From IMG/VR virus record IMGVR_UViG_3300025120_010521: DNA of 64,000 nt; one strand, given 5' to 3'. The number at the start of each line of letters is the position of its first letter. The stretch's first letter is position 1. A model generated the notes under the pieces. That model did no database searches, was not told the origin of the DNA, and was given only the letters and a program-made list of their open reading frames with translations. This stretch comes from a virus (taxonomy: Duplodnaviria; Caudoviricetes). A program made the translations under genes and the position numbers. Shown one piece after another: positions 23,571 to 59,635 of this stretch.

Positions 23571-24023
23571 TTAAATTAGACTTTGAAAAGTACCCTGTTT
23601 ATTAATTGTAAGTACTTGTTTTCGGTTATCGGCATTGTCTTTATATGATATATGAACCCAGCCACTACGTGGGTCCTTGCCATTATAAAATTCAAGTATT
23701 AGCTGATCGAAGTCTAAATTGTTTTTGATCCATTCTGCTAAATCTCTATTGCTGAGAGTTGGTACTTCTATATCTGCCGCTTCTCCAAAACAATGCTGTG
23801 ATTTTTTGGAACCACCAATTGCTGTGTTTAATTTTTTACATCTATAACCTGAATTAATTACTGTAGGACCAAACTTATCTCTAACAGGCTGTAATATTTC
23901 TTCTGCAAGTGTTTGCATTTTAGAAACAATATCAGGATCTTTTGGTAAGTTATCAATACCTTTACGTAATGCTGTTTGACTTTTGCAAAGTTCTGCTAGT
24001 GAAAAATTATTAGTGAGTTGCAT
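23571..24023 (-). CDS. Peptidase M15A (endolysin-like)
   Basis: NSGYRC, SQH..GEAAD, WVHISY. Confidence 0.9.
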   Translation of the reverse strand: MQLTNNFSLAELCKSQTALRKGIDNLPKDPDIVSKMQTLAEEILQPVRDKFGPTVINSGYRCKKLNTAIGGSKKSQHCFGEAADIEVPTLSNRDLAEWIKNNLDFDQLILEFYNGKDPRSGWVHISYKDNADNRKQVLTINKQGTFQSLI

Positions 24024-24456
24024 GATTATCTTTTCCTTCTACCATGTCTCCGTATGTTTTGTAACCTGTTTTTACACTTTCATCTTTTGGATAATATATT
24101 TCACAACCATTTTCACCATCTTCAGATACTTCAATTCTTACATCACGTTTAACATACTTTTGCTTAATTTCTTTATATAAATCATCTGCCATCATTTCAC
24201 ATGACTTATAATCAAGTTCAAGTGTTTTTTCTGCATATAGTTTTTCAAGCCATCTTTTAAACTGTATAAATTCAATATCTCTATCATCATGGAATACTTC
24301 AATAGCGACTTTAAAATGAAATATATGTCTATGTGGATATCCTAAAAAACTAACATCATATTCATCACCTGTTGCAAGTTTAGGGTCATCTAATGCCGCC
24401 GGATACTTATGTATTCCTTCTTTTCTAAATGTTACCCAAATTAGTTTTTTCATCAA
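24010..24456 (-). CDS. queD: QueD-like 6-carboxy-tetrahydropterin synthase (T-fold)
   Basis: EGIHKYP, HRH, DRDIEF, SCEMMA, EVSEDGENG; FolE/QueE/TGT in the same window. Confidence 0.75.
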   Translation of the reverse strand: MMKKLIWVTFRKEGIHKYPAALDDPKLATGDEYDVSFLGYPHRHIFHFKVAIEVFHDDRDIEFIQFKRWLEKLYAEKTLELDYKSCEMMADDLYKEIKQKYVKRDVRIEVSEDGENGCEIYYPKDESVKTGYKTYGDMVEGKDNHATH

Positions 24457-24829: not shown

Positions 24830-25031
24830 TTGTACTCCTTATAAAGTCTTTTGCTGTTGGTTCTAACTTTTTTAACCTAAAACTTAATGCTTTTTTATCG
24901 CCTTTGCTTGTAACAATAACAGGCTGTCCATGTAAATCTTTTTTAATATCTTTAATTTTTGCACTGACATTTTTAAATCTACCAAGCTCAATGCTGTCAC
25001 CAACTTTCAATGTTATTGTTGTTGATTTCAT
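24795..25031 (-). CDS. hypothetical protein
   Basis: 78-aa ORF in operon. Confidence 0.5.
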   Translation of the reverse strand: MKSTTITLKVGDSIELGRFKNVSAKIKDIKKDLHGQPVIVTSKGDKKALSFRLKKLEPTAKDFIRSTNGNSKRTKART

Positions 25032-25549
25032 ACTGGCTTATCCTTTTTATATTCTTCCCAACCTGTATAGTTATTTGGAACTTTAATTGTTTCTATAGTA
25101 GTAGACCATACTCCATTATTTGTTGCTTCAAAATCTTCATCATCAAGTTTAATATTGATTGTTCCTTTAATTTTATCAATGTTAGGAACTACAATTGCAT
25201 AAGTTAAACTAAATCTTGCATGTGAAAGAAACTGTTTTATTTGATTTGGAACTGTTACAGGATCAACATCGACTGTTACATGTAGCTTTGCATTTAAACA
25301 TTCTTTAATAAGATCAAACATAGGATCTGTCCATTGTTTTTTCCAGTTTTTAAATGAATGATTGGCTCCAAAATAAATTTGTTCTATATCATGTTTAATG
25401 ACTTTGTTAACAAAATTTACTGGTGTTTCTTTTGGAACCCCAACTACAAAATATGTGTTCATTCCATAGCAAGGAGTTCTTTCAACTTCTATGCCAACAA
25501 AGTCAGTGACATTCTCTTTGATCTCTTGATTATCGTATTCTCGCTTCAT
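25028..25549 (-). CDS. hypothetical protein between queD and the TGT-like gene
   Basis: FVGIEVERTP, IYFGANHSF, KLDDEDFEATNNGVW; own sigma70 promoter. Confidence 0.65.
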   Translation of the reverse strand: MKREYDNQEIKENVTDFVGIEVERTPCYGMNTYFVVGVPKETPVNFVNKVIKHDIEQIYFGANHSFKNWKKQWTDPMFDLIKECLNAKLHVTVDVDPVTVPNQIKQFLSHARFSLTYAIVVPNIDKIKGTINIKLDDEDFEATNNGVWSTTIETIKVPNNYTGWEEYKKDKPV

Positions 25550-25584: not shown

Positions 25585-25989
25585 CTATATGTCGCCTTCT
25601 TTTCTATTTTCACTTTTGGCCACATTAAATTCACCTTCTGGATATCTGGCCATTAGCTTTTCTTTATTCATACTAATTACTTTGTTAGGATCAACACCAA
25701 GTGCCATACACCCTTGTGTCCAATACCACATAACATCACCAAGTTCTTTAATCATGTGTGTTTTAGTTTCTTCTGTTAGTGGCTTTCCTTGAAACACTAG
25801 TTTTTTTACAATTTCTGTAAACTCTCCTGATTCTGCTGATAATCCCATTGCCGCTGTTAGTAATCTTGGAACATCTTTATTTCCTAAATCATCTAACCTT
25901 TGTCTAAATGCTGTTGAATCTTTAGATTCGTTGCTGGTAACTTTATCCACAAACTGTGAATATTCTTTTAAATCAATCTCTGACATCAT
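25585..25989 (-). CDS. MazG-like nucleoside triphosphate pyrophosphohydrolase
   Basis: GLSAESGEFTEIVKK...KELGDVMWY...NKEKLMARY. Confidence 0.85.
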   Translation of the reverse strand: MMSEIDLKEYSQFVDKVTSNESKDSTAFRQRLDDLGNKDVPRLLTAAMGLSAESGEFTEIVKKLVFQGKPLTEETKTHMIKELGDVMWYWTQGCMALGVDPNKVISMNKEKLMARYPEGEFNVAKSENRKEGDI

Positions 25990-26206
25990 CTTCCTCCATT
26001 TGCTCTTCTACTTTGTCTACAAGTTCTTTTACGTCCTGTTGCCATAAAATTCTATCTTGTGGTATTGCTTTAATTAATTCTTTAACTGTTTTTTTTAGTT
26101 CGTTGTACTTGTACTTCATATTGGCTGATTCATTTTTATATTCATTTGCCATATATTCCGCTGTGTATCTCATTTGTGCTTCTTTGTTTTGCCAATCTGA
26201 TGACAT
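25973..26206 (-). CDS. hypothetical coiled-coil protein
   Basis: 77-aa ORF coupled to the TGT-like gene. Confidence 0.55.
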   Translation of the reverse strand: MSSDWQNKEAQMRYTAEYMANEYKNESANMKYKYNELKKTVKELIKAIPQDRILWQQDVKELVDKVEEQMEEDDVRD

Positions 26207-27732
26207 TATACAGTTTCTAACACCTTTTCCAACTCTTCTAATTTTACATCATTTGGATCACCTAGATCGCCATCACCCATTGAGCTTTGTGTATCAACAT
26301 CAAATAGATTAGTGAAGTTGTTACCAGATTGTCCAGTCCATCTCACACCTCTTATGTCATGTAAGAATGCTTGGTTGTCTTCTAACATCTGCATAGGAGT
26401 TTCTGACTTGAAGAAATCTTCAATGAAAGCATTAAAGTAAAGTACATTTCTAGGACACCAGTCACTAAATTCTGCTGATGTTTCTTTTTGTTTTACTTTA
26501 CGCCAGTGTCTGTAATCTGGCTTGTGTATAGATGATTCAATATCAGTAATTTGATTTGCTTTTTGTACAATCTTAATATGTTGATTAACATTATGACCCA
26601 TCATCAATGCATAAGCAAATGAATCCCAAGATGTTTTACCTTCTTTGCCTACCTTGTTTAAATCACCAGGCCCATACCAACAAATATCACCAATAGTAAG
26701 CCTTCTGCCAATCTCCGACTCCCATGGAAACGGTATAGTAGAAAGTTTTAATGCTTTACTATCAGTTGCTTTGTCCATAATATATGACCATCGCTTGTTA
26801 GTATGAACCGGTGAAGTATATACCAAACCATGTGCTGTTGCCACAAACGCACTTGCACTATCATAAGATACTGTCAGGTTTGGATTTACATGCTTTCTTA
26901 GTTGCCTTTGAATTGACGTTAAGAAACAAGCCCAATCTAATTTACTTGTACCAAGAAAGTGTATCCAATCTCTGTTATCAAGTAATTTAGAATCACGTAA
27001 TATAATTAGGCGTCGGAGAGCCATTGTCATATCACACATATTGTTTCCGCCAAATGCCCAACCTTCAAATGGAAAATGCTTCACAGCATCATACCATACG
27101 TCTCCAGTTGGAATATCAAAGCCTTGAAGCACGTTCAGAAACTTTGTTTGTCCAAGTCTATGTTTTAAAAAATATTCATTGTTATGTACTGTACCTGAAA
27201 TACAATCACCATACGATTTCAATCCTGTCTTAGGGCTGTGTGTGGCATCACTTGCCCAACTAGGAATATCTAACACCATTGACCAATCTGCTGTAAGTTC
27301 TAACCAATGTAGAATCTTATTACGCATTGTGTTTGCAGATTTGCCTTTGAAGTTTTCCCAATCAAATTTTAGTATGCCTTTACCAATTTGATATCCACCA
27401 CTGTCACCTACAATAATAGTATCTTTTTTATTTCTTGTGTGAAACATTGATTCGTTCACAATAGATTTTTCAACATCTAGATGAGCGTGGCCGGCTGAGT
27501 ATAAGCCATATTTGTAATTGAAGTAACCTTTTTCTTTGTTAAGATAGTTTAGTCCTTCAATACCATTTTCAAATCCTTTTGGGATTCTATCATCTGGCAC
27601 AAACTGTTTGTCAGTTCCGCCTGTTTGTTGTTGCTTACTTACATAAGTTTGATAAAAGCCACTAACTGCTGGTAAAAACACAGCATAGTCTTTGTGGCTG
27701 GCTGTTAGATCTTCTCCGTATGGTTTTGACAC
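26206..27732 (-). CDS. tRNA-guanine transglycosylase-fold protein (DpdA-like deazaguanine insertase)
   Basis: DSGGYQ, LDIP, NVLQG, GWAFGG, IHFLG, SYDSAS, GHN in TGT order; next to the clamp and PolB. Confidence 0.8.
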   Translation of the reverse strand: MSKPYGEDLTASHKDYAVFLPAVSGFYQTYVSKQQQTGGTDKQFVPDDRIPKGFENGIEGLNYLNKEKGYFNYKYGLYSAGHAHLDVEKSIVNESMFHTRNKKDTIIVGDSGGYQIGKGILKFDWENFKGKSANTMRNKILHWLELTADWSMVLDIPSWASDATHSPKTGLKSYGDCISGTVHNNEYFLKHRLGQTKFLNVLQGFDIPTGDVWYDAVKHFPFEGWAFGGNNMCDMTMALRRLIILRDSKLLDNRDWIHFLGTSKLDWACFLTSIQRQLRKHVNPNLTVSYDSASAFVATAHGLVYTSPVHTNKRWSYIMDKATDSKALKLSTIPFPWESEIGRRLTIGDICWYGPGDLNKVGKEGKTSWDSFAYALMMGHNVNQHIKIVQKANQITDIESSIHKPDYRHWRKVKQKETSAEFSDWCPRNVLYFNAFIEDFFKSETPMQMLEDNQAFLHDIRGVRWTGQSGNNFTNLFDVDTQSSMGDGDLGDPNDVKLEELEKVLETV

Positions 27733-28475
27733 TATTGACTCCTAGCAGGTAGGATATAGTCATAAGTTGCTGTGCCAGAATCAATTGATATCTGCATAGC
27801 ACCTTGATCACTAAATGACATACTTGCTTGTGAAGTATCACTTAATTTCAAAATACTCAATACCTGTGCTAGTGGCCAAGCCCAACCTTTAGTTAGTTTG
27901 CCTTGCACATTTTGAGCAAATGGAATTTCAACTCTGTCATTTGCGCCATCTCCAATATAAAACTTTAGTGTATCACCATCTGTTTTTGCAACAAATGTTG
28001 GCTCAAAGCCACCCATAATACCATTAAAGTAAGTCAAGTCTTTAATATTTTGTTGTGTTGGCTGTACTGTAATATCCCATTCAACACCTTTAAACTTGAT
28101 TGTTTTTAATTGTTCTTCAATTAAAGAACTTACCATGAATCTATAGTTTGCAGTATAACCACCTGGCGATGTAAATTTTAGCTCTTCTGCTGTTTCTACA
28201 CCATCTCTTGTGTTTGTCATAACTTCGATGTTTGCACCATCTTTGCCATATGCTTCATAGTTTAAGTAGCCTGATAGTACACCAAGTCTACCCATTCCAA
28301 TTAATCCTGGAACGTTGTCTAATTTATCTTTTAATTTACCTTTTAGAACTACTGTTCTATCATCATCCATTGCTTCAATACTTGTGCCTTCATCTGTGCT
28401 TTCAAGTTTTACTGCTTGAATAAAGCCCAACGAATGAGTATGTTTTACAATGTCTAGTAATACATCTTTTAACAT
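27732..28475 (-). CDS. sliding clamp (processivity factor)
   Basis: 247 aa, position beside PolB, clamp-like pattern; RFC-type loader in the window. Confidence 0.7.
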   Translation of the reverse strand: MLKDVLLDIVKHTHSLGFIQAVKLESTDEGTSIEAMDDDRTVVLKGKLKDKLDNVPGLIGMGRLGVLSGYLNYEAYGKDGANIEVMTNTRDGVETAEELKFTSPGGYTANYRFMVSSLIEEQLKTIKFKGVEWDITVQPTQQNIKDLTYFNGIMGGFEPTFVAKTDGDTLKFYIGDGANDRVEIPFAQNVQGKLTKGWAWPLAQVLSILKLSDTSQASMSFSDQGAMQISIDSGTATYDYILPARSQ

Positions 28476-36291: not shown

Positions 36292-36772
36292 TTTGTTTTA
36301 ACCTTTTATTTCGTTTTTTCATTGCCATGCCAAGTTTAAGTTTAGAAACCAACGTATCAAATGTTACTCCATTTAAGTGATCAGTTTCATGTTGAAAGAC
36401 TCTACTCATCATTCCGTCGAGTTTTTCATTAACTTTCTCTCCATTAGTATTTACATATTCTACAACAACATTAAGTGGACGTAGAACTTTTAAAAATAAT
36501 CCTGGAAAACTTAAACATCCTTCTGTAATTAAACCTTGCTCACTACCTGTTTCAACAATCTTAGGGTTAGCTATTAGTTTATAACGTGTTTTATCTCCCA
36601 TGATGAAAAAACTTTTATCTAAACCAACTTGTGGTGCCGCTAGTCCTACCCCATTATTATTTGACATAATTGTATGCATTTGCTCTGCTAATTTTACTAC
36701 ATTATCCATGTCTTCGTCAACACTTATTGTAGGTTTCTTTAATATATCTGCTGGTGCATAAACGAGATCCAT
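36284..36772 (-). CDS. def: peptide deformylase
   Basis: GVGLAAPQ, EGCLS, HETDH. Confidence 0.95.
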   Translation of the reverse strand: MDLVYAPADILKKPTISVDEDMDNVVKLAEQMHTIMSNNNGVGLAAPQVGLDKSFFIMGDKTRYKLIANPKIVETGSEQGLITEGCLSFPGLFLKVLRPLNVVVEYVNTNGEKVNEKLDGMMSRVFQHETDHLNGVTFDTLVSKLKLGMAMKKRNKRLKQNG

Positions 36773-44483: not shown

Positions 44484-45435
44484 TTAAGTATTGTGCATGA
44501 TCAGTTGGCTGTTCAGCTAATTTTGTTAAGCCATACTTTGCACAAAACTTCATAAAACGTATTCCAACTTGATCAATATGTTTTGGATTCTGTGCTTTTA
44601 ATATTTCTGCAAATACTTTAGTTCTAATTTCTTCTGGTTGTTTAGTTAAATCAATTAACTTCTTATTTCTTTCATAGCATTCTTTTACTCTATGTTCTAC
44701 ACCATTATGGTCTGTCCAACGTTGTAACATCATGTTATTCCAAACAAATCCCTGATTATCTCTATCAGCAAATGCTTCTTCAAGTTTAGTTTTACGTACT
44801 TTTGGATATGCTGAAAAAACATTGTCTGTTGAGTCACCTCTCATACATTTTTCAAACAATAACCACTCTGGATTAGGTGGTAACTTTGTTTCACCTGTTT
44901 TTTTATCTATAATAGGACGATCTTTTTCATCATAAAAACCATTTGCTGTAACAATTTGATTTGCTACTCCGTTATATAAAGAGATGTTTTGATTTATTAA
45001 CTGATAAAAATCTGAGTCTGATGATATAATAATGTGCTTATCATTTGGATGTGCTTGTGTCCATAACGCAATTAAATCGTCTGCTTCTGATGTTGGTTCA
45101 CGCAATACAGAACAGTTTGTATTTTCTTTTACAAATGTACAAAAATGATCAAATGCTTCCCACCAAAAATCATCTTCTTCTTTTTCACGTTCAGTTCTTT
45201 TGTCAAGTACAACTGCACGATTCTTTTTATATGGTTCGTAAAAATCTTTACGCCAACTACGTCCTTCTAAACAGAATACAACGTGTGATCCTGAAAACAT
45301 TGTGTTGGCTTTTTTAAGTGAATTAAAAAGAATGTGAAATGCCAAACTGATCTTTGTATCTAGGTCAGTTCCTCTACTAGAAACATGTCTAGCCCTAAAA
45401 AATGTGTTTGCTGTATCTACTAATATATATGTCAC
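44443..45435 (-). CDS. 5'-3' exonuclease / T4 RNase H-like (FEN family)
   Basis: LVDTAN, WRK..Y..YK..R, EADD, SSDSD, GDSTDN. Confidence 0.9.
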   Translation of the reverse strand: MTYILVDTANTFFRARHVSSRGTDLDTKISLAFHILFNSLKKANTMFSGSHVVFCLEGRSWRKDFYEPYKKNRAVVLDKRTEREKEEDDFWWEAFDHFCTFVKENTNCSVLREPTSEADDLIALWTQAHPNDKHIIISSDSDFYQLINQNISLYNGVANQIVTANGFYDEKDRPIIDKKTGETKLPPNPEWLLFEKCMRGDSTDNVFSAYPKVRKTKLEEAFADRDNQGFVWNNMMLQRWTDHNGVEHRVKECYERNKKLIDLTKQPEEIRTKVFAEILKAQNPKHIDQVGIRFMKFCAKYGLTKLAEQPTDHAQYLNAGYKIVESQTNN

Positions 45436-45854
45436 GAATATTCTACTTTGCCATCTTTGAGTTCAGTTTTAGAAATTTTTTCTCTGTTTTCTTGTTGTGC
45501 TTTTAATTCTTCAAACACATCTTGGTCCATGGTTTCTAAAACAATGCCTCGGCAAAGATCATCAAACCATTTGTTAACAATTTCGTCATCTGTTACACCT
45601 GTGTAATTATTTTTAGATAACATATCAATAAATGATTGATTCCAGTCTAACTCAAAGTATCCTTTCTTTGGGTTCTCTGGATCAAAGTTCGTATTCAATA
45701 CAGTCACAAAAGGCTTGTTATCTATATCAGCAAGTTTCTTATCAAGTTCTGTACCTGATAATTCATGATGTGCTTTGGCACGTTCTTTGTCCTTGCCTTT
45801 TAGTAACCATCCTTTTGGATTTAAGTTAAATGGTATTTTATTTTTCTTTTTCAT
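45432..45854 (-). CDS. hypothetical protein
   Basis: 140-aa ORF. Confidence 0.6.
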   Translation of the reverse strand: MKKKNKIPFNLNPKGWLLKGKDKERAKAHHELSGTELDKKLADIDNKPFVTVLNTNFDPENPKKGYFELDWNQSFIDMLSKNNYTGVTDDEIVNKWFDDLCRGIVLETMDQDVFEELKAQQENREKISKTELKDGKVEYS

Positions 45855-45964
45855 TTTTTATTGTCTTTTCTATGGGAAATATAATTACATTATCAAATTT
45901 AAGCATTTCTATTCTCCATTTTAAGTATTCTATATAAGTCATTATAACATATTTAGCGGTAATG

Positions 45965-46333
45965 TCAAGTGGTCTTTTGAAGAAATCTTTCACTTAAATC
46001 TCTTAATTCATCGTGTGTAAATGAACTTTTCCAAGTATTTGCTTTGTGTGTTAATAGTTGAATATTGTCTACTGTATATCCTTTTGTTGGATCTATCCTA
46101 TCAATTGTACACGATTGTGGGTTACACCATTTATTTTGCCATTTTCCTCCTCCACGTACAAATTCTAAATCATCTCCAGTTATAGCACATTTCCAATTTT
46201 GTTTTTGGCCAATATTATATACATCAATTTTAGTTATTTCACTTGACCAAGATTTTTGGCCTCTGTTCTTAGCACGACTGATATTCTGTTGGATAAATTT
46301 TAATTTAGTACTATCCATATTAGCAATGTGCAA
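45965..46333 (-). CDS. HNH-like nuclease domain protein
   Basis: CAITG...TIDRIDPTKGYTVDNIQL...N..K. Confidence 0.65.
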   Translation of the reverse strand: MHIANMDSTKLKFIQQNISRAKNRGQKSWSSEITKIDVYNIGQKQNWKCAITGDDLEFVRGGGKWQNKWCNPQSCTIDRIDPTKGYTVDNIQLLTHKANTWKSSFTHDELRDLSERFLQKTT

Positions 46334-46940
46334 TAGGATCGTGTGTAAGATTAGACATCTGTTCTAATCTAGTTGTTGGATATTTGTCTCTGTTTTTAAG
46401 AAATTCTTCGTGATGTATCATTTTACCATTAACAAGGAATCCCCAATGATCACCTTCTGTTTTTTTACCCATAAAAAATATACTCCAACAAGGAATTTCA
46501 TTGCCATTTTCATCTTTGGCTAATTCTAAATAGTGTAAATCTTCTGCTTTTCTAAATCTTATACTGCCAGGACCCCTCCAAAATTTACCTTTAGGAGTAT
46601 GTTCCCAATATCCACCTTTTAATATTATAGCACCCCAATTCCAAGGATGACTATGTAGTATTGGTTCATCACCTAACATCACTTTGTGTAATGTAAAGTT
46701 AAAAGGAAAGTTTTTTCTATCTTTTAAAAACAAATAGTATCTCACAAGATACTCTCGTGTATTATCTCTGTTGTAAATAATTCTTTTTCTATCTTTAAAT
46801 AATGTTGATATCAATAACACTGCAAATACTCCCACACATGCAATAAACATAATTGTTGTTTTAAATACCTTGACAACTGTTTCTGCTACATCTACTTTTG
46901 AAACTATTTCTTCTGCTTTAAACCAAATATCTTTGATCAT
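46320..46940 (-). CDS. putative cupin-fold protein
   Basis: LHKV...LHSHPW...GGYWE...HYLEL His pattern. Confidence 0.5.
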   Translation of the reverse strand: MIKDIWFKAEEIVSKVDVAETVVKVFKTTIMFIACVGVFAVLLISTLFKDRKRIIYNRDNTREYLVRYYLFLKDRKNFPFNFTLHKVMLGDEPILHSHPWNWGAIILKGGYWEHTPKGKFWRGPGSIRFRKAEDLHYLELAKDENGNEIPCWSIFFMGKKTEGDHWGFLVNGKMIHHEEFLKNRDKYPTTRLEQMSNLTHDPIAHC

Positions 46941-47863
46941 GTTCCTATCGCATTACCAAAAAGATAAACGTGAACTCTCGCCGCGACATTGTAACCACGT
47001 TTGAAAGCCTTTTCGGCAACCTTTCCTGCACCTGCTGTTTGTTCTTCTTCTCTTGCACCTGTAGGCATAACCCATACTGGCCAATCAACACCTTGTGCTT
47101 TAAAAAGTTTAATTACTTCTTCCATTTCTTCCCACTCTCTATCATCAGGACCTACCACAAACTTTAATTGTCCTTTGCTAGAAAGTTTTCTATACTCTGC
47201 CACAATCTCAGGCTTGATTGCTTTTTCTCTTTTCTCACCGGATACTGTAAACAGTTTAGGACTACAACTAAAGAATATTTCTGTATCAATTCTGTTAACC
47301 CAATCAATAAATGGTTGTCTAAGTTTTTGTGTGCCATTAGTTTCAAATGTCATCGATCCAGGCAAGTTACCTTGTCTTTCAAGTTCTTCATATATGCCTA
47401 TGGTTGCTGTTTGTCCTGTAACCATTAATGGCTCTCCACCTGTGATACACAAATGTTGACTTTGTCCTGTTACTGGGTGTTTAAATAATCCTTGTGGATT
47501 ACTTTCATTCTTCATTATATCAACTATTTTGTTTGCCATCACAGTTGGTGTTTCTTGACCCATCAGCTCTTTAAACTTCTTAGCCCATGTGTAACTTGAA
47601 TCACAACCTTTGTCCCAAACAGGCAAGTCTTCAACTTTGTCTACACTAGATACATCAAAATTTTCAAATGGCAAATCATATGTGTCTGGGTTGGTTGGAT
47701 CTATTTGCCCAAACCCATTGCATTGCAAATTGCACAAGAAGAAACGTATCCATGCTGTTGGAACACCTGTGTAATGTCCTTCACCTTGAATACTGTGAAA
47801 TATTTCAGAATAATAGAACTTCTTTTCTACAGTTTTACCAAACTCATGTTGTGCTAATGCCAT
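46937..47863 (-). CDS. queE: QueE-like 7-carboxy-7-deazaguanine synthase (radical SAM)
   Basis: SEIFHSIQGEG..TG.P..W.RF, CNLQC...GCDS, ITGGEP, ETNG, SPKL. Confidence 0.85.
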   Translation of the reverse strand: MALAQHEFGKTVEKKFYYSEIFHSIQGEGHYTGVPTAWIRFFLCNLQCNGFGQIDPTNPDTYDLPFENFDVSSVDKVEDLPVWDKGCDSSYTWAKKFKELMGQETPTVMANKIVDIMKNESNPQGLFKHPVTGQSQHLCITGGEPLMVTGQTATIGIYEELERQGNLPGSMTFETNGTQKLRQPFIDWVNRIDTEIFFSCSPKLFTVSGEKREKAIKPEIVAEYRKLSSKGQLKFVVGPDDREWEEMEEVIKLFKAQGVDWPVWVMPTGAREEEQTAGAGKVAEKAFKRGYNVAARVHVYLFGNAIGT

Positions 47864-47911
47864 ATTATATACTCCATTATACTACCTATTATATAGTATT
47901 TAGGCAATATG

Positions 47912-48463
47912 TCAACCGCTATGTTCTTCTAGATATTCTAACATTTTTTCAGGTGTTGACTCAATATATGGATCATCGTCCTCTCCGTCATTGTTGATTC
48001 CTGGTTCTTGCCACCATTTTTCAACAATACCATCGTTGATTACTGCCATATATCTCCAACTACGCATTCCAAACCCTAAATGGTTTTTACCAACTAGCAT
48101 ACCCATAAAACGTGTAAAGTTAGCAGATCCATCTGGAATAACTTTTACGTTATTAATATGTTGCTGTCTTGCCCATGCGTTCATTACAAATGAATCATTT
48201 ACACTCATACAGTAAATTTCGTCAATTCCTAATAATCGAATAGTATCATAATTTTCTTCAAACCCTGGAAGTTGTTTCGAAGAACAGGTAGGTGTAAATG
48301 CACCAGGTAAGCTGAATAGTACTACTCTCTTATTTTTAAAATAATGGTCTGTAGTTTTATCTACCCAAACTCCGCCAATAGCACAACCACTGCCTTGTGT
48401 TTCTTCTTCATCGCCTTCTCTAGTTCTAAATGTTACTTTTGGTATTTTCAAGCCTTGTCTCAT
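47912..48463 (-). CDS. peroxiredoxin (Prx5-like); start moved to 48463
   Basis: LPGAFTPTCS, SVND.FVM.AW, RSWRY; AGGAG SD before MRQGLKIP. Confidence 0.9.
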   Translation of the reverse strand: MRQGLKIPKVTFRTREGDEEETQGSGCAIGGVWVDKTTDHYFKNKRVVLFSLPGAFTPTCSSKQLPGFEENYDTIRLLGIDEIYCMSVNDSFVMNAWARQQHINNVKVIPDGSANFTRFMGMLVGKNHLGFGMRSWRYMAVINDGIVEKWWQEPGINNDGEDDDPYIESTPEKMLEYLEEHSG

Positions 48464-48489: not shown

Positions 48490-49002
48490 CTATATAGCCC
48501 ACCACTCTTCCCATGGATATACTATCCATTGAGGATGGTCGATTTTATTGATGAACTTTGATACATAATCAACATCACCAAATTTGCTTGGTTCATTTTC
48601 AACCAATACTGCAAATCTTATATTGTCTTCCCAATTAATTTCTGACTTGTTGTTTTTAATAATTTTACCACTGTTATTCCAATCTTGTTTAATCCAAGAT
48701 AATGTTTCACCGGTATCGTTAATGTCGTCAACGATTAAAATCTTTTTACCATCAAGGGCATCTTGGGCCATCCACTTATTTGATTCTGGTTGAACAGCAT
48801 GATCTCGTAATTTAATTTCTAATGTATGCATTGGCACTTCAAAGTAATGACTTATCATTGTTGCAGGAATTAATCCACCTCGTGTTAATCCTACTATGTA
48901 GTCTGGTTTAAATCCATCACCGTCAACTGCAATTTGTTGGATAACATCTGATGTCATATCTTCAATGTCTTGCCAACTATAATAAATTTTTTTATCTGCC
49001 AT
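48490..49002 (-). CDS. type I (purine-type) phosphoribosyltransferase
   Basis: VGLTRGGLIP, LIVDDINDTGET, WIVYPWE. Confidence 0.9.
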   Translation of the reverse strand: MADKKIYYSWQDIEDMTSDVIQQIAVDGDGFKPDYIVGLTRGGLIPATMISHYFEVPMHTLEIKLRDHAVQPESNKWMAQDALDGKKILIVDDINDTGETLSWIKQDWNNSGKIIKNNKSEINWEDNIRFAVLVENEPSKFGDVDYVSKFINKIDHPQWIVYPWEEWWAI

Positions 49003-49405
49003 CTGTTACCCTTTTCCTTAAATCTGTAGTGCTGAATCTGTGATCTCTTGTATTAAAATACAGTTCAATACCACGTTGGTTACAAGCATCTTTGCCTGTA
49101 AAATCTTTTTCTTTATATTCTTTACCTAATATTCTAACATCAATTGGTAAAGTTTGCAAGATATCAATTACATCTTTTTCTGTTTGATAAGGAACTACTT
49201 CGTCTATATATTCAACTGCTTTTAATTGTAGATACCTTTCAAACATTGTTTGAATTGGTTTATTTTTAGTATCTGGCCTATCAATTGTTGGATCGCTTTG
49301 TAGACCAACAATTAAATAATCACATTGACCTTTTGCTTCACGCAACATAGAAATATGACCTGCATGTAACAAGTCAAATGTACTAAATGTTATTCCTACT
49401 TTCAT
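48992..49405 (-). CDS. cytidylyltransferase (TagD-like)
   Basis: TFDLLHAGH (HxGH), RDHRFSTT. Confidence 0.88.
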   Translation of the reverse strand: MKVGITFSTFDLLHAGHISMLREAKGQCDYLIVGLQSDPTIDRPDTKNKPIQTMFERYLQLKAVEYIDEVVPYQTEKDVIDILQTLPIDVRILGKEYKEKDFTGKDACNQRGIELYFNTRDHRFSTTDLRKRVTDGR

Positions 49406-50180
49406 CTTTTACCTTATTATTTTTTACTGCTTGATTTAAATGAAGCCAAAAATTATTATATTCTACTGCTTCTTTTATCACAGACAATCCAACTTCATTG
49501 TTGTTTGCTGTTGTAACTAATGCATTTGTATCTTTTGGAAAACAATGTCCGCCAAAACCTCTTTCATCAGTTATGTAACTGTGGCTTTCACCTATTCGCA
49601 TATCATCTGCTACACATTCTCTCACTTTGTCAAAATTAAGATTAAGTTTTGAACACAGATCATACATTTGATTAAAGAAAGAAACTTTTGTTGCTAAGAA
49701 ACTATTTCTAAAATATTTTGATAGAATTAATTCTTCAGCACTTGCTAATTTAAATTTTAAATTTTTATTGTTGTTTGAAAAAAGTTTACTCCAAAATTCC
49801 CAGTTATCTACACTAAAATACATTGTTGTTTGTTTGTTAAAGTCTTCTATGGCTGTTTTTGCTCTCAAAAACTCTGGACTAAACGTTATGCCTTTGTTAG
49901 GATACTTTTGTTTAAGTTGTTGCCAACCTTCTAAACTAATTGTGCTTTTAATTAATATTGGCTTATCATTTGATTCATCAATGCAATCAAATACATTTTG
50001 CATATCACAAGCACCATCTTGTCTTTGTGGGGTTGATACACAAATTATTAATGCATCGTAATCTGCATCTTTAATAGTTTTATTATTGTATGCTGGATCA
50101 ACTATTGTTATTGAGTGCTCTGATAATGCTTGTTCAATTGCTTTACCAACGTACCCATATCCTGCTATAATTATTTTCAT
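49383..50180 (-). CDS. UDP-glucose/GDP-mannose dehydrogenase family; start moved to 50180
   Basis: GYGYVG, PEFLR, KYFRNSFLATK, GFGGHCFPKD. Confidence 0.88.
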   Translation of the reverse strand: MKIIIAGYGYVGKAIEQALSEHSITIVDPAYNNKTIKDADYDALIICVSTPQRQDGACDMQNVFDCIDESNDKPILIKSTISLEGWQQLKQKYPNKGITFSPEFLRAKTAIEDFNKQTTMYFSVDNWEFWSKLFSNNNKNLKFKLASAEELILSKYFRNSFLATKVSFFNQMYDLCSKLNLNFDKVRECVADDMRIGESHSYITDERGFGGHCFPKDTNALVTTANNNEVGLSVIKEAVEYNNFWLHLNQAVKNNKVKDESRNNI

Positions 50181-50464
50181 CACAATATAAACAATTGTAC
50201 TAGTGCTATTGCATTCATTATTGTAAACCAACCACATAGTATTATAACAAATGCCGCTTTACGTATAACTGCACTAATTACTCCTAATGCTGATCCAACA
50301 AAATACATTGGTATAAACAATTTAGTTGCAGGATCTAAAATTGTAAATGTTAATATTGCACTTGCTGTAATTAACAAAATTGCTTCAACCATTTCACACC
50401 AAAATGCAAGTGGTGAAAAAGTATAACTATCTTTTATAAATTTTTTAACTTTTATCATATCCAT
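50180..50464 (-). CDS. small membrane protein
   Basis: 3 hydrophobic segments. Confidence 0.6.
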   Translation of the reverse strand: MDMIKVKKFIKDSYTFSPLAFWCEMVEAILLITASAILTFTILDPATKLFIPMYFVGSALGVISAVIRKAAFVIILCGWFTIMNAIALVQLFIL

Positions 50465-50741: not shown

Positions 50742-51428
50742 CTACCTTGGAGCAAATTCTTGTTGTAATTTAATATTGTCCATAAACTCTTTTTTAGTTC
50801 CTTCAATATTTTTAAAATCACCTCTTAACACTGTGGTTTGTGTTAAACTACTGTGTGCTTTAATACCTCTGTTTTCACAGCAACCATGTGTTGCTTGTAC
50901 ATACACACCAACGTGTTCACTGCCTGTTTGCTTTTGAATTGCGTTAGCAATCATAACATTAAGTTCTTCTTGTAGTGTTCCACGTTTTGCACACCATTGT
51001 GCAATTCTTGTGTACTTGCTTAAACCTAATAGTTTAGGACCAGCAATGATACCAATGTATGCTACACCAGACACTGGCTGGTGATGATGTGAACAAACAC
51101 TTTTAAGTTCACTTCTTACAACAAGCATACCTTCATATCCATTTTCAATGTAGTTAGGAAATGCACTTGGATTAGGCATGTCTTCATATCTGCCACTCAT
51201 GATTTCGTTGATGTACATTTTTGCCATACGCCTTGCAGTATCTTTGCTGTTAGGATCTGTTTCAGTATCTATTAGTAAACTTTGTAGTACATTTTCAAAA
51301 GCAGGAACTGCCTCATCAATTAGTTGTTGTTTTTCACCTGGCTCAATATATTTAGAGATATTATCATTAGCCCAGTATCTTGTGTTGTTATCTTTTAGTC
51401 TCTGTAGAATTTTATCTTTTATTTTCAT
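50742..51428 (-). CDS. folE: GTP cyclohydrolase I; likely start 51428
   Basis: TARRMAKMY, CSHHHQP, GLSK..RI, RGTLQE, HGC...RG. Confidence 0.95.
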   Translation of the reverse strand: MKIKDKILQRLKDNNTRYWANDNISKYIEPGEKQQLIDEAVPAFENVLQSLLIDTETDPNSKDTARRMAKMYINEIMSGRYEDMPNPSAFPNYIENGYEGMLVVRSELKSVCSHHHQPVSGVAYIGIIAGPKLLGLSKYTRIAQWCAKRGTLQEELNVMIANAIQKQTGSEHVGVYVQATHGCCENRGIKAHSSLTQTTVLRGDFKNIEGTKKEFMDNIKLQQEFAPR

Positions 51429-51434
51429 TACCAT

Positions 51435-51511: not shown

Positions 51512-51844
51512 TTAATGGTAAGAATAGTTAGCCATTGGATAGTAAATCCCATTATGATTCATTCCAAGTCTATCTTCATAGTCATCACTAATATCTGCTA
51601 TTTCAAAATATTGTCTTTTATGATGATATTCAGGTTCATGGCCAAATAATTCTAATATTTCTGCCATACTAACGTAACGTACACCTTTTTTTATTTTTTC
51701 TTTAAAGTATGTCGATAGAGAATCCATTACCTCTTGCTCTTGCCAATCAATTACGTCTGGTAATTTCATTCCGGAATCAATCTCAAACTGTAAGTGAGAT
51801 TTTCCTATTTTTTTCTTTGGTTTCTTTATTTTCTTGTTTGCCAT
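51512..51844 (-). CDS. hypothetical protein
   Basis: 110-aa ORF overlapping the glycosyltransferase end. Confidence 0.55.
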   Translation of the reverse strand: MANKKIKKPKKKIGKSHLQFEIDSGMKLPDVIDWQEQEVMDSLSTYFKEKIKKGVRYVSMAEILELFGHEPEYHHKRQYFEIADISDDYEDRLGMNHNGIYYPMANYSYH

Positions 51845-52907
51845 AATTACTAATAGTATTTACTAAATTATTTGCAGAGAAATACGTATCAGTTAATTTT
51901 TGCTCTAAATCTTTTAATTTTGGCAACTTATTATCATAATTCTGCATATCATTTTTAATCATATCAACTAGCTTATATTTGTGTATTTCATAACTGGCAT
52001 AAGAACTAGTCCAAGTTGGATCATATTTCCAAATATCATCATACATTTCCGTATAACTTAATCTATCAGGAACTAATGGCATTGCACCAACTAGTATTCC
52101 TTCGTATGGTGATATACCTAATGTTTCTTGTGTATTTGCTGAGAACACCATTTTTGCTTCTCCAAGTAAAGTATGATATTCATCTTTAGTTAATTGTTCA
52201 TCTTGACACACAATAAATTCATACTGTGGTAAATGTTTTGCTAGGTCTCTAAATATTTGTGGTTGTTTTTCAGGAGCAATTCTATGTGGAAATAAAATTA
52301 AATCACGTTTTTTCATTCCATTATATTTTTTAAGAGTATCTTTCATATACTCCATTGGCCATCCACTTTGTATAATTTTATCATTTACACTACGGACTTT
52401 ATGTGATTTGCCAAATAATCTTACGTGAAATTCTGTTGCAAAATAGTTGTGGTCAAAACATTCAAACATTGATCTTTCTGCATGTCTTACCCATGGAGCA
52501 TCTCCAATCAATCTACCTAAAAAGTCTGCTGGATCATATGAGCCGGCATGCCATAGACCATGTGTGATAACTTTGATTCCAAGTAGTTCAGACATATACT
52601 TAACATTAATAATACCAGGATGCCAAGCATCAGTAAAAATAATATGGTCGCCATCTTTAACTTCGCCTTCAGTAAAGGCTCGTGATAGTTTTTCCATTTG
52701 TGTTGATTTATAAATATTTGTTCCACCAAAGTTTAAAAAAGCACCTGGTGTTGTTGCAGGTGGAATATCGTCAGCACCGTCAATAACTCTAACTAAAAAT
52801 CCTTCATCATTTAATAATTTAGGAACGTGTGTTTTCCACTGACAAGTATATCTTGTTTCTACTGATTCTAAATCTACTATCCAAACTTTTTGTATATCTA
52901 TTTTCAT
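51783..52907 (-). CDS. GT-B glycosyltransferase (GT4-like, resembling the QTMAN/GTDC1-DUF3524 group)
   Basis: FPHRIAPEKQP, ETLGISPYE (EX7E), GAMPLVPDRLSYTEM. Confidence 0.8.
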   Translation of the reverse strand: MKIDIQKVWIVDLESVETRYTCQWKTHVPKLLNDEGFLVRVIDGADDIPPATTPGAFLNFGGTNIYKSTQMEKLSRAFTEGEVKDGDHIIFTDAWHPGIINVKYMSELLGIKVITHGLWHAGSYDPADFLGRLIGDAPWVRHAERSMFECFDHNYFATEFHVRLFGKSHKVRSVNDKIIQSGWPMEYMKDTLKKYNGMKKRDLILFPHRIAPEKQPQIFRDLAKHLPQYEFIVCQDEQLTKDEYHTLLGEAKMVFSANTQETLGISPYEGILVGAMPLVPDRLSYTEMYDDIWKYDPTWTSSYASYEIHKYKLVDMIKNDMQNYDNKLPKLKDLEQKLTDTYFSANNLVNTISNYGKQENKETKEKNRKISLTV

Positions 52908-52940
52908 TATTTGTTTATTATATACGATTTATTAAAAATG

Positions 52941-53279
52941 TCAATCTTTTTTAGGAGTAACATCTTTAACAACTTGCATGAATTGTTGGTATTGCTGTGG
53001 ATAATGTTTATTAACATGATCTAACATTCCTTGGACTGTTACATCATCACCGCCTGTACTATCTTTTAAAACTTTCCAGTTATCATAATCAATTATAACT
53101 GTTGATGAATCCCAATGCTTTGGTCTTAACTTATCAACAAAGTAAACATACTCTTGCACTCTCCATTTTCCTTCTGTGCCAAAGTTTTTCATTGATGTAT
53201 TAGCCCCTGGGGCCGGCATGTATGTGTGTTGGAATACTATAAAGTGACCTTTTTTAGTGCTCATATAGTTATTTACCAC
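52941..53279 (-). CDS. hypothetical protein
   Basis: 112-aa ORF. Confidence 0.55.
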   Translation of the reverse strand: MVNNYMSTKKGHFIVFQHTYMPAPGANTSMKNFGTEGKWRVQEYVYFVDKLRPKHWDSSTVIIDYDNWKVLKDSTGGDDVTVQGMLDHVNKHYPQQYQQFMQVVKDVTPKKD

Positions 53280-54362: not shown

Positions 54363-54403
54363 TATGCTTTATTATAGTATAAATTGTATATTTTGTCAAA
54401 TGT

Positions 54404-54760
54404 TTAAAATGTAGCAACGCCGCCGTCCTGAAGATCATCTGGTTTGTCATTAGATTTACCAAGAATGCCTTTTGGGTCAGCAACACGAAGATCAAACTCT
54501 TCTCCATCATCTTCAACTTGCACGCCTTTTGTCCAACGACCATGTTCCATTAATACATAATCACCAGGTTGTACCCAATCAATTTCAGGACCAACAGCAT
54601 ATACTTCTGCCCAACGTGGTCTAATTCCATGTCCGCCATCTGAAATTTTATCTGCAGATGGAAGTATAATTCCACCTTTGGATTTCCGCATACCTTGATC
54701 AATACTTTTAACCAAGATTTTATTTCTCAAAGGACGTATTTTACCTTTTGTTACGTGCAT
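54404..54760 (-). CDS. groES: GroES-like co-chaperonin
   Basis: IRPLRNKILV, KSKGGIILP, AVGP. Confidence 0.88.
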   Translation of the reverse strand: MHVTKGKIRPLRNKILVKSIDQGMRKSKGGIILPSADKISDGGHGIRPRWAEVYAVGPEIDWVQPGDYVLMEHGRWTKGVQVEDDGEEFDLRVADPKGILGKSNDKPDDLQDGGVATF

Positions 54761-56132: not shown

Positions 56133-56399
56133 TTAATCACCTATTGTGAAAGGTTTTTCGTCAAATCTTTCTAAATCTTGTTCTTTAGTTTGACGATCTC
56201 GCAATTCTTGTGTAAGAAATGCTAGTTGACGTTGCATCTGTTTGTGTGCTTCTGTATATCCACCACGTCTACCAACTTGATTAATTTTATTTTGAATTGA
56301 GTTAATCAACTTCATTAGTTGATCGTTATCTAAATCTGGTTGTTCAAAAACATTTTTAGGCACCAAAACTCTCCCCACATCCGCATGATGATGTTGCAT
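56133..56399 (-). CDS. hypothetical protein
   Basis: ORF in operon. Confidence 0.5.
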   Translation of the reverse strand: MQHHHADVGRVLVPKNVFEQPDLDNDQLMKLINSIQNKINQVGRRGGYTEAHKQMQRQLAFLTQELRDRQTKEQDLERFDEKPFTIGD

Positions 56400-56676
56400 T
56401 TGGATTTACAACATTTAAATATGATCCACCTAATTCTTCAACATAGTCAATTGTACAACCAAGTATGTACATTTCAGCAACTTTATCTATTAATAATGCT
56501 TTGCCTTCATTTAGTTCAAATTTAATTGTATCTTCAGCTTCTTCATCTGCGAAGTTCCATTCATACTTAAAACCTGCACATCCACCGCCTTTAACAGAAA
56601 AACGCACATATGGTTTATCTTTGCTTAATGCTGTGTTAGTTAAATATGATTTTGCTGTATCTGTTATGTTAATCAT
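56356..56676 (-). CDS. A-type Fe-S carrier (IscA/ErpA/HesB)
   Basis: GGGCAG, SCGCGESF. Confidence 0.92.
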   Translation of the reverse strand: MINITDTAKSYLTNTALSKDKPYVRFSVKGGGCAGFKYEWNFADEEAEDTIKFELNEGKALLIDKVAEMYILGCTIDYVEELGGSYLNVVNPNATSSCGCGESFGA

Positions 56677-57945: not shown

Positions 57946-58158
57946 TTATTTATTATCTTTAGAGTTTTTAACCAATTTCATCATCATTAGGTATTGTTGA
58001 TACGATTCTTCGACTGCTGGGTATCTCCTACGCATATATTGTTCATGTTTTGCTCGTTGATCTAGTTTAAACTGTTTACGTTTTAATGTATACAGATCTT
58101 GTTCGAGTTGTTTTATTTTATGCGTTTGTAAGTACTCGTCAGGAGCCATTTGTGTCAA
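57946..58158 (-). CDS. hypothetical protein
   Basis: 70-aa ORF. Confidence 0.55.
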   Translation of the reverse strand: MTQMAPDEYLQTHKIKQLEQDLYTLKRKQFKLDQRAKHEQYMRRRYPAVEESYQQYLMMMKLVKNSKDNK

Positions 58159-59635
58159 TCCACTTATTCAACAATTTAATACCCCATCCTGTAGCACCAC
58201 CACTTGCTGTCATTGACCCTTTATCATTCCAAGTAACTCCTGCTATATCAATGTGTGTCCAAGGAACATCATTTACAAACCTCTGTAAAAATTGTGCCGC
58301 TGTTGTTGAACTTGCTTCGCCGCCTTTACCAACATTATGCATGTCAGCAATTGTTGAATCAACGTATTTGTCGTATCTTTCTCCAATTGGATCGCATGGT
58401 AAACGCCATACTTTTTCATCTACTTTATGTCCTGCATCAATAAGTTGATTGCTTAAATCATCATTGTTTGAAAATATGCCAGCAAGTTGATCACCAAGTG
58501 CAATTGAAATTGCTCCGGTTAATGTTGCTAGATTAATCATTGTTTTTGGCTTATATGTTTTTTGTGTGTACCATAAACAGTCTGCTAGAACTACTCTACC
58601 CTCAGCATCTGTATTATCAATTTCAATAGTTTGCCCACTCATTGAGTTGATTACATCTCCAGGCTTATATGCATTACTAGACACCATATTTTCTACTAGC
58701 CCAATAACACCAACTGCGTTAATAGGTAGGTTACGTTTTGCAATACTGATCATTGTACCAACAACCACTGCTGAACCACCCATATCATATTTCATGTCTT
58801 TCAAGCCTCTAGATGGTTTAATTGAATATCCACCAGTATCAAATGTAACTCCTTTACCAACAAAGGCCCTAGGTGCATCACCTTTTTTGCCTTTCATCCA
58901 TTCCATTACAACCATTTTAGATTCTCTAGCACTACCTTGGCCAACTGCCAATAGTGCTTCAGCACCCATTTCTTTTAGTTCTTTTTCACCATATACTTTT
59001 ACTTTGAGTCCTAGTGCTTCTAATCCTTTAACACGTTCAGCATAAGATTCAGGATACAGTACATTTGAAGGCTCTGAAATTAAATCTTTTGCAAATGCTG
59101 TGCCTTCAATTACTGCGTCTTTGTGTGCATACTCTTCTTTTACTTTTTTTAAGTCAGCACCTTCTTGACATATATCAACTTCAAATAATGTTTCTTCTTT
59201 GTCTTTTTTAGTAAAGTATTTGTCAAACTTATATTCTTTTAACTGCATACCAAAAGCAACATTAGTAGATGATGGTAGTACTTCTTTGTCAACAAATGCA
59301 AGTACACGACCTTGTGTGCCACGTTCTTTTAATTTACTATAAATTGCTCCACCTACTTTTTCTAATTTAGCATCATCTAATTTAACAGGATCTCCTACAC
59401 TAACAAACAATGCATCATGGCAAGGCAAGTTGTTAGATGTAATAAAAAAACTATCTAAAAATTTACCTTTAAAATTATTGTGTGTAATTGTTTCGCTTAA
59501 TAATCCATCAGTGCCTTCATCTAGTATTGATGATGAATGAGATAATTGTACTGCATCGTCTTTTGTATAAAGTAAATGTACTTCGCAAGTACTTTCGCCA
59601 CTTGATTCTATATCGTTAATAAAATCTATTTTCAT
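58139..59635 (-). CDS. pepA: leucyl aminopeptidase (M17)
   Basis: GKGVTFDTGG, MKYDMGG, NTDAEGR, ATLTGA. Confidence 0.95.
   Translation of the reverse strand: MKIDFINDIESSGESTCEVHLLYTKDDAVQLSHSSSILDEGTDGLLSETITHNNFKGKFLDSFFITSNNLPCHDALFVSVGDPVKLDDAKLEKVGGAIYSKLKERGTQGRVLAFVDKEVLPSSTNVAFGMQLKEYKFDKYFTKKDKEETLFEVDICQEGADLKKVKEEYAHKDAVIEGTAFAKDLISEPSNVLYPESYAERVKGLEALGLKVKVYGEKELKEMGAEALLAVGQGSARESKMVVMEWMKGKKGDAPRAFVGKGVTFDTGGYSIKPSRGLKDMKYDMGGSAVVVGTMISIAKRNLPINAVGVIGLVENMVSSNAYKPGDVINSMSGQTIEIDNTDAEGRVVLADCLWYTQKTYKPKTMINLATLTGAISIALGDQLAGIFSNNDDLSNQLIDAGHKVDEKVWRLPCDPIGERYDKYVDSTIADMHNVGKGGEASSTTAAQFLQRFVNDVPWTHIDIAGVTWNDKGSMTASGGATGWGIKLLNKWIDTNGS

Follow-up and report, generated by a model that had tools for sequence, protein, structure and literature searches.

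A GT4-type glycosyltransferase gene associated with QueC-less 7-deazaguanine DNA-modification clusters in phages

Introduction

IMG/VR record IMGVR_UViG_3300025120_010521 (Duplodnaviria; Caudoviricetes) is represented here by a stretch of 64,000 nucleotides, called the window below, which carries a glycosyltransferase gene (GT) together with a set of genes for 7-deazaguanine modification of DNA. A first-pass annotation made from the sequence alone had likened the GT product to the queuosine mannosyltransferase QTMAN (GTDC1) and had proposed that the phage glycosylates a 7-deazaguanine in its DNA or in tRNA. Here we present the features of the locus, a structural prediction for the protein and a comparison of its gene neighborhoods, which place GT in the phage 7-deazaguanine pathway and make it probable that a sugar is added to the deazaguanine.

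For the comparison, 95 loci from IMG/VR and 43 from prokaryotic genome assemblies were fetched, and profiles of the cluster proteins were used to scan their open reading frames (ORFs). Loci in which GT has 5 kb or more of sequence on each side (43 viral, 27 from prokaryotic assemblies) are called well-flanked, and linkage was assessed within 6 kb of GT.

Locus features

In the window and its closest relatives (loci L001, L005 and L015) the cluster is split: the part with GT, folE and queE, at 45-54 kb, adjoins the clamp loader, and the other part lies about 24 kb away, by the sliding clamp and the DNA polymerase. The features of the two parts are as follows (aa, amino acids; TGT, tRNA-guanine transglycosylase).

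52917..52944, minus strand: sigma70-type promoter, TTGACA-16-TATAAT, perfect (12/12 consensus match)
51783..52907, minus strand: GT-B/GT4-like glycosyltransferase, 374 aa (fold model, motifs)
51512..51844, minus strand: 110-aa ORF between GT and folE (tblastn matches in L001, L005 and L015 only)
50742..51434, minus strand: FolE, GTP cyclohydrolase I (PF01227, E 2e-38; phrog_2197)
49383..50237, minus strand: UDP-glucose/GDP-mannose dehydrogenase-like protein without the C-terminal domain (PF00984, E 3e-25; PF03721, E 8e-11)
48992..49405, minus strand: cytidylyltransferase-like nucleotidyltransferase, 137 aa (PF01467, E 3e-14; phrog_7878, E 1e-34)
48490..49002, minus strand: purine-type phosphoribosyltransferase (PF00156, E 2e-16)
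46937..47863, minus strand: QueE-like radical S-adenosylmethionine enzyme, 7-carboxy-7-deazaguanine synthase (phrog_2076, E 3e-54; TIGR QueE models sub-threshold)
46320..46940, minus strand: 206-aa conserved cluster protein with an HSHPW...H motif (in 34/43 well-flanked viral loci)
45432..45854, minus strand: 140-aa conserved protein of the family of PA5oct EST35_0324 (homologs in related loci)
27732..28475, minus strand: sliding-clamp-like protein (homolog in 80 loci)
26206..27732, minus strand: DpdA3-like DNA-guanine transglycosylase, 508 aa (TGT fold, invariant DSGG[FY]Q)
25585..25989, minus strand: MazG-like nucleotide pyrophosphohydrolase (PF03819, E 2e-7)
25028..25549, minus strand: 173-aa conserved protein, commonly between DpdA3-like and DpdL (40/43 well-flanked viral loci)
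24010..24456, minus strand: DpdL, a QueD paralogue and proposed 7-carboxy-7-deazaguanine decarboxylase (LGYPHRHIF fits LxxxHRHxF)

The ORF that the first-pass annotation had given for GT is real, with an ATG start and a product of 374 aa, but it lies on the minus strand, the plus-strand frame being stop-ridden. The C-terminal peptide cited there, ILFPHRIAPEKQPQIF ... ETLGISPYEGILVGAMPLVPDRLSYTEM, is present in the product. The annotation was also right that a single ORF, the 110-aa one, separates GT from folE, and that genes for a nucleoside diphosphate (NDP)-sugar dehydrogenase and a cytidylyltransferase (49383-50237 and 48992-49405) lie downstream of GT.

The -10 element of the promoter ends about 10 nt ahead of the GT start codon, so that the mRNA would be nearly leaderless; GT stands at the head of a same-strand gene run that includes folE, probably an early transcription unit. 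Perfect 12/12 sigma70 promoters occur four times on the minus strand within 9.5 kb (45941-45968, 47888-47915, 52917-52944 and 54371-54399), each with a spacer of 16-17 nt and each lying just ahead of the start of a gene; this arrangement suggests strong early promoters that host RNA polymerase would use and that are followed by very short leaders.

The 110-aa ORF is kept only within the window's own lineage. Two 94-aa ORFs lie between folE and the dehydrogenase-like gene, homologs of which share the GT strand in 32 other related loci; the cytidylyltransferase-like gene was detected in just 7 loci. The recurrent truncated UDP-sugar dehydrogenase, together with occasional cytidylyltransferase and short-chain dehydrogenase/reductase-type epimerase genes, suggests a tailored sugar donor, possibly a uronic acid, as the linked dehydrogenase would provide. 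The phosphoribosyltransferase is a recurrent cluster member (35/43 well-flanked viral loci) and is annotated as a xanthine-guanine phosphoribosyltransferase (XGPRT) in Cyanophage BUCT-ZZ01; it could recycle the guanine freed by base exchange or make deazapurine nucleotides, as in tubercidin-type pathways. A peroxiredoxin gene lies between it and QueE. The HSHPW...H motif suggests that the 206-aa protein is a candidate cupin, and the 206-aa, 140-aa and 173-aa families have no Pfam match.

In the second part of the cluster, the DpdA3-like protein is 41% identical to PA5oct EST35_0316, whose gene abuts the GT gene of that phage. All of the top 50 Foldseek matches in PDB to its AlphaFold2 model (predicted local distance difference test (pLDDT) 83) are TGTs (E 2e-8). 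The 508-aa protein has no Pfam match, and neither its family profile nor that of the 173-aa proteins matches PDB sequences, so that the assignment as a TGT comes from the fold search alone. An Atlas look-up with the 173-aa protein gave no usable match. The window DpdL is 58-70% identical to its homologs in ACP17, PA5oct and Phosso and carries the signature LxxxHRHxF, as defined for this family (PMC10516641). The sliding-clamp-like gene, whose counterpart at the corresponding position in Phosso is annotated as sliding clamp, marks the replication module that houses the cluster.

Structure and family of the glycosyltransferase

Searches of the window protein against Pfam, PHROGs, NCBIfam and PDB sequences yielded nothing at threshold. 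Pfam PF00534 (Glycos_transf_1) was recorded with an E-value of 0.067 and 13 bits (gathering score 26.4), and 39 of 48 relatives match it at E <= 0.1 (best 4.5e-9). With a profile, PDB gave weak matches to generic glycosyltransferases only, the top one being 8xsg, an Actinobacillus glucosyltransferase (E 9e-5). The AlphaFold model obtained from the 48-sequence alignment (pLDDT 94.6, predicted template modelling score 0.90) has the canonical GT-B fold with two Rossmann domains. Foldseek matched it to glycogen synthase, BshA, MshA and LmbT in PDB with E-values of about 1e-11; in structure it comes nearest to generic enzymes of the GT4 type (BshA, MshA, LmbT and the synthases of glycogen and sucrose phosphate) and also to the pterin glucosyltransferase 5zer. 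In the Atlas, the clusters of GT's own family consist of viral 'hypothetical proteins', and generic GT4 enzymes come next.

The donor-binding motifs of GT4-type enzymes are intact (R209-x4-K214 and E261-x7-E269). Over 48 homologs, with identities down to 27%, E269 is invariant, and E261, R209 and K214 are each conserved in at least 90%. The N-terminal domain has a conserved pocket lined by acidic and aromatic residues, among others (W24, Q70, D87, D93, W95, H120, D125, D128, W139 and E144). As modelled, the gene product is thus a catalytically competent, NDP-sugar-dependent retaining glycosyltransferase of the GT-B/GT4 type. The family comprises at least 8000 proteins among the matches listed by a word-indexed search, mainly from aquatic metagenomes, and 1260 clusters at 50% identity in an exhaustive search.

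The specific resemblance to GTDC1/QTMAN was not borne out. DUF3524 (PF12038), the N-terminal domain of GTDC1, does not match the window protein even at E <= 10, and matches none of the 48 relatives (0/48) at E <= 0.1. GTDC1 is not within the top 30 AlphaFold Swiss-Prot matches and is no close structural neighbor of the phage enzyme; DUF3524 clusters appeared neither in the AFDB-cluster nor in the Atlas structure searches. The structural comparison that the annotation had proposed thus led to generic GT4 enzymes, a result named there as speaking against its own claim. The motif cited in its support corresponds to the R-x4-K/E-x7-E donor-binding region common to GT4-type enzymes. The likeness is one of donor-binding motifs and of analogy: QTMAN, too, is of the GT4 type and takes over after a TGT-family enzyme has set 7-deazaguanine into nucleic acid.

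Linkage to deazaguanine genes in phages

At least one of DpdA3-like, DpdL, FolE and QueE is encoded within 6 kb of GT in all well-flanked loci (43/43 viral and 27/27 prokaryotic-assembly), and a DpdA3-like gene in 41/43 and 27/27, respectively. The common viral order is sliding clamp - DpdA3-like - 173-aa protein - DpdL - GT - FolE - cupin-like protein - phosphoribosyltransferase - QueE - 140-aa protein. In a phage database of 50,697 records, GT was found in 23, DpdL in 28 and both in 18. The gene orders in six cultured phages, with the identity of their GT to that of the window, are as follows.

Sinorhizobium phage Phosso (48%): DpdL - GT - hypothetical protein - folE ... queE
Acidovorax phage ACP17 (38%; GT is ASD50404): queD - folE - hypothetical protein - 424-aa protein - GT - DpdL - queE
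Pseudomonas phage PA5oct (44%; GT is EST35_0317): 540-aa protein - GT - DpdL ... queE
Burkholderia phage BCSR5 (25%): GT - 446-aa protein - queE - folE
Xanthomonas phage X1 (25%): folE ... GT - 'queuine tRNA-ribosyltransferase' - DpdL - queE
Cyanophage BUCT-ZZ01 (23%): queE - XGPRT - queD - folE - two hypothetical proteins - DpdL - GT

The adjacency thus persists in six cultured lineages despite rearranged gene orders and GT identities of 23-48%. The co-occurrence of the family with dpdA, queE and folE, which the annotation had suggested examining, is the rule: homologs independent of deazaguanine genes are the exception, and the family lies nearly always inside such clusters. That GT works with phage 7-deazaguanine modification is strongly supported. 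PA5oct and G001, a complete 328-kb relative of the window's phage, have a member of the 173-aa family, which Phosso, BCSR5, X1 and BUCT-ZZ01 lack.

Homologs in bacteria

In Alphaproteobacteria (e.g., Pelagibacterium, Devosia, Ochrobactrum, Methylobacterium, Magnetospirillum, Shimia and Sulfitobacter) GT adjoins a DpdA3-like gene; DpdL is often there as well, folE and queE are not. Among the well-flanked prokaryotic-assembly loci, FolE occurs within 6 kb in only 3/27, whereas the DpdA3-like gene does so in every one. Because bacterial GT genes accompany DpdA3-like genes without folE or queE, the tie is to the transglycosylase and the supply of a deazapurine base, not to pterin synthesis. A pterin glycoside as the product, as with the BGluT enzyme, was rejected as GT and the DpdA3-like gene persist where FolE is absent.

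Pelagibacterium mangrovi (L110:8092-11035) and Shimia ponticola (L120:9489-12551) carry a chromosomal trio of a DpdA3-like gene, a Vut_1/YhhQ-like transporter gene and GT, with no folE or queE nearby. We take the transporter to belong to the family of the Escherichia coli preQ0/preQ1 importer. The alphaproteobacterial module may serve to mark nucleic acid or in defence. In Magnetospirillum (L123) the order GT - DpdL - DpdA3-like - QueD was observed by genes for a CoiA-like nuclease and a HEPN protein.

Base and acceptor

QueD is encoded in 5/5 complete related genomes and was not found in the 64-kb window. The complete genomes of Phosso, ACP17, PA5oct and BCSR5 lack QueC, which argues that the base is not derived from preQ0 and that the pathway either ends at 7-carboxy-7-deazaguanine (CDG) or runs on through DpdL, as in the phiST/ACP17 type (PMC10516641). 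G001 gave three PP-loop hits, two under the QueC cut-off and the third marginal (23.1 vs 22 bits). The two sub-threshold ORFs (L143:781-1674 and L144:1498-2292) encode divergent PP-loop (SGGxDS) ATPases without a match in PDB sequences, and none of the three proteins has a homolog in the window; the G001 ATPases may have a QueC-like amidating or nitrile-forming role.

It is very improbable that GT is a true relative of QTMAN/GTDC1 that mannosylates a queuosine-type base in tRNA. The resemblance in the donor-binding half and the shared position downstream of a TGT favor this possibility, and the YhhQ-like transporter of the bacterial trios might, in theory, allow them to salvage queuosine precursors. 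Opposed to these points are the unmatched DUF3524, the absence of GTDC1 from the structural match lists, the lack of QueC in the four complete phage genomes, and the acceptor of QTMAN itself, the queuosine cyclopentenediol in tRNA, which these phages cannot make and whose genes were not seen in the clusters. Moreover, DpdA3-type enzymes act on DNA (PMC10516641), and the DNA of PA5oct itself is modified at G, its virion DNA resisting restriction at G-containing sites (PMC12191111), which makes modification of tRNA the less likely alternative in general.

A second alternative, which we consider improbable, is that the substrate of GT is unrelated to deazaguanine (a hydroxymethyl-pyrimidine, a pterin, a virion protein or host envelope glycans) and that the gene sits in a replication and nucleotide-metabolism module by ancestry alone. 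FolE feeds pterin synthesis too, Phosso and PA5oct carry ThyA-family genes, and in the distant branch of Xanthomonas phage PhiXhv-12 the homolog lies by amino-sugar genes. Against this, the linkage outlasts gene shuffling over the six cultured phage lineages and is kept in bacterial chromosomes with the TGT-like gene alone, with or without a YhhQ-like transporter or DpdL; the pterin version fails where folE is absent. The ThyA/hydroxymethylase family (PF00303) is absent from G001, ACP17 and BCSR5, i.e., from 3/5 complete genomes, so that hydroxymethyl-pyrimidines are not the general acceptor, and this candidate was rejected on co-occurrence.

GT accompanies transglycosylases fed by different C7 chemistries (phages with DpdL, bacteria relying on salvage). 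If the acceptor is a 7-deazaguanine, the sugar is therefore more likely to go to a site that all such bases have, for example the exocyclic N2; the other candidate linkage is an ester with the carboxyl group at C7 of CDG.

Proposed pathway

GT is probably a dedicated part of a QueC-less phage 7-deazaguanine DNA-modification pathway, in which it would add a sugar to the deazaguanine. In the proposed scheme, GTP would be converted to CDG by FolE, by QueD, whose gene lies elsewhere in related genomes, and by QueE; DpdL would alter this compound further, decarboxylation having been proposed. The DpdA3-like enzyme with its TGT fold would then exchange guanine in phage DNA for the deazaguanine base, and GT would attach a sugar to 7-deazaguanine, acting on the free base prior to the exchange or on DNA that already contains it. 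The product would be a glycosylated deazapurine shielding the DNA from host nucleases. Co-inheritance of GT with the QueC-less deazaguanine set is observed, co-transcription with it is probable, and from comparative genomics we infer that GT puts a sugar on deazaguanine in DNA. The proposal of the first-pass annotation therefore stands as far as the place of GT in a deazaguanine DNA-modification system is concerned, for which gene context speaks; its sugar on the DNA base is a conjecture to which we adhere, and its tRNA version has lost ground.

Several points weigh against a sugar on the DNA base. The case is one of comparative genomics, not of chemistry, and gene linkage fits base glycosylation and other roles in the pathway alike. 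DpdL/DpdA3 systems function without GT, the DNA of phiST containing plain dDG (PMC10516641), and no GT homolog is present in phiST, RHph_I1_18 and Bakedbeans. GT thus supplements only some of these systems, namely a group with a DpdL subfamily of its own. 7-Deazaguanine, the proposed product of DpdL, lacks a handle at C7, which would leave N2 or O6 as the acceptor unless the carboxy form is the substrate. The family is acidic (median isoelectric point 5.9), which is atypical for a nonspecific DNA binder. Contigs L009-L012, which are at most 16% complete, have no dpd genes in the available flanks, GT adjoining a CTP-synthase-like gene, a ligase and a deacetylase gene instead. In PhiXhv-12, finally, GT sits with genes for GlmS and a BshB-like deacetylase, the DpdA3-like gene being 94 kb off. 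Complex prediction for GT and the DpdA3-like protein gave a score of 0.00, which is evidence neither way.

Some of these points would also suit a pathway in which GT acts but the final DNA base is undecorated, either because a glycosylated or nucleoside-like free base is a transient intermediate or because a protein partner is glycosylated. Such an intermediate could keep the base soluble, afford self-protection or help the unusual DpdA3-like enzyme to recognize it. Among the nearest structural neighbors are GT4 enzymes whose acceptors are small molecules (BshA, MshA, LmbT, 5zer), the family is acidic, the phosphoribosyltransferase and MazG-like genes point to free-base or nucleotide chemistry, and HuiG works on a free 7-deazapurine base (PMC7439116). 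This explanation is nevertheless unlikely, though less so than an unrelated substrate: the core cluster has no evident deglycosylating enzyme, and the invariant partner of GT is a DNA transglycosylase, not the biosynthetic enzymes.

Comparison with known systems

The closest described system is the DpdA3/DpdL type of phiST (PMC10516641), which shares FolE, QueD, QueE, DpdL with the LxxxHRHxF signature, a distant TGT-like DpdA, the lack of QueC and a location among replication genes; like the window, phiST has a MazG gene, which there lies beside DpdL. It differs in having no GT homolog, and the DpdL proteins of GT-linked clusters are only about 34% identical to its DpdL. Beyond the phiST gene set, these clusters contain GT and, in many cases, a phosphoribosyltransferase, a cupin-like protein, two small proteins without assigned function and a truncated UDP-sugar dehydrogenase.

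ACP17 has been named as encoding DpdL and DpdA, and expression of the two in E. coli gave no dDG, other enzymes possibly being needed according to the authors (PMC10516641). No glycosyltransferase is named in the main text of the same study (Cui et al. 2023). For PA5oct, a deazaguanine system was listed by Iyer et al. (PMC7824862), and a 2025 preprint reported that its virion DNA resists restriction at several G-containing sites, the G modification being chemically unidentified (PMC12191111). Literature searches found no description of a glycosylated deazaguanine in phage DNA or of a link between a glycosyltransferase and deazaguanine clusters.

That a deazapurine core can be glycosylated, both as a matter of chemistry and by an enzyme, follows from the activity of HuiG of the huimycin pathway in Kutzneria albida, which transfers N-acetylglucosamine (GlcNAc) onto N2 (the 2-amino group) of a 7-deazapurine; gene clusters of the HuiG family carry PF13439-type glycosyltransferases, and huimycin and dapiramicin are natural-product precedents for N2 glycosylation (PMC7439116; 10.64898/2026.04.15.718813). 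HuiG, compared here from the literature only, resembles GT as a GT-B enzyme encoded beside folE, queD and queE homologs and having an acceptor derived from 7-deazaguanine; it differs in belonging to secondary metabolism, where it modifies a free base after the QueC (preQ0) step, and in having no transglycosylase partner.

The alpha- and beta-glucosyltransferases of T4 have a pyrimidine acceptor with a hydroxymethyl handle (5-hydroxymethylcytosine), whereas 3/5 complete GT-bearing genomes lack a ThyA-family hydroxymethylase; sequence similarity to GT is undetectable. BshA, MshA, LmbT and BGluT are 10-16% identical to GT, act on unrelated acceptors in unrelated pathways and share no gene context with it.

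Implications

As a near-obligate neighbor of DpdA3-like transglycosylase genes, GT points to one more hypermodification, so far undescribed. Such a modification could account for both the G modification of PA5oct and the failed reconstitution of dDG with DpdL and DpdA of ACP17. The broadest form of the proposal is that a large phage clade has guanine replaced by glycosylated 7-deazaguanine by means of the GT4-type enzyme and the DpdA3-like enzyme, and that Alphaproteobacteria apply the same pair to nucleic acid of their own, with a YhhQ-like importer as its supply; this we put forward tentatively, giving it slightly less than even weight. If true, the clade would include thousands of marine and freshwater phage contigs in addition to PA5oct, ACP17, Phosso, X1, BCSR5 and BUCT-ZZ01.

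To our knowledge, all DNA glycosylations described so far are on pyrimidines, and none of the known 7-deazaguanine bases of phage DNA (dPreQ0, dPreQ1, dADG, dG+, mdPreQ1, fdPreQ1, dDG and dCDG) bears a sugar; a glycosylated deazaguanine would thus be the first sugar-bearing purine in any DNA that we know of. Since the family is very abundant in aquatic viromes, the modification would shape the resistance of environmental phage DNA to restriction enzymes, Cas nucleases, sequencing chemistries and base-callers. For Alphaproteobacteria, the trio of transporter, transglycosylase and GT genes is a hint that a related mark, epigenetic or for self/non-self distinction, may exist there.

Additional observations

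In PhiXhv-12 (L146 5669-8903) the GT homolog (29% identity) follows directly after the genes for GlmS and the BshB/LmbE-like deacetylase, an arrangement that resembles, by analogy with BshA and BshB, transfer of GlcNAc followed by deacetylation.

Outside the cluster, the window contains two large adjoining ORFs of 1654 aa (13509-18473) and 661 aa (11520-13505) with no Pfam match, the products of which are probably large structural or injected proteins. Chaperones are encoded at 34063-37656 and 54404-54760 (a ClpB-like double-AAA chaperone of 742 aa, a full DnaJ of 294 aa and a GroES-like Cpn10). Auxiliary hydrolases comprise an M17 leucyl aminopeptidase (PF00883, E 1e-117), a DegP-like trypsin-PDZ protease with an apparent signal peptide and a class-3 lipase (58139-59635, 42663-43766 and 38633-39442, respectively). 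Other auxiliary genes code for an IscA/HesB-type Fe-S assembly protein (56356-56676), a saccharopine-dehydrogenase-like protein (32009-33037) and a PrmA/TRM5-like methyltransferase (22085-23026).

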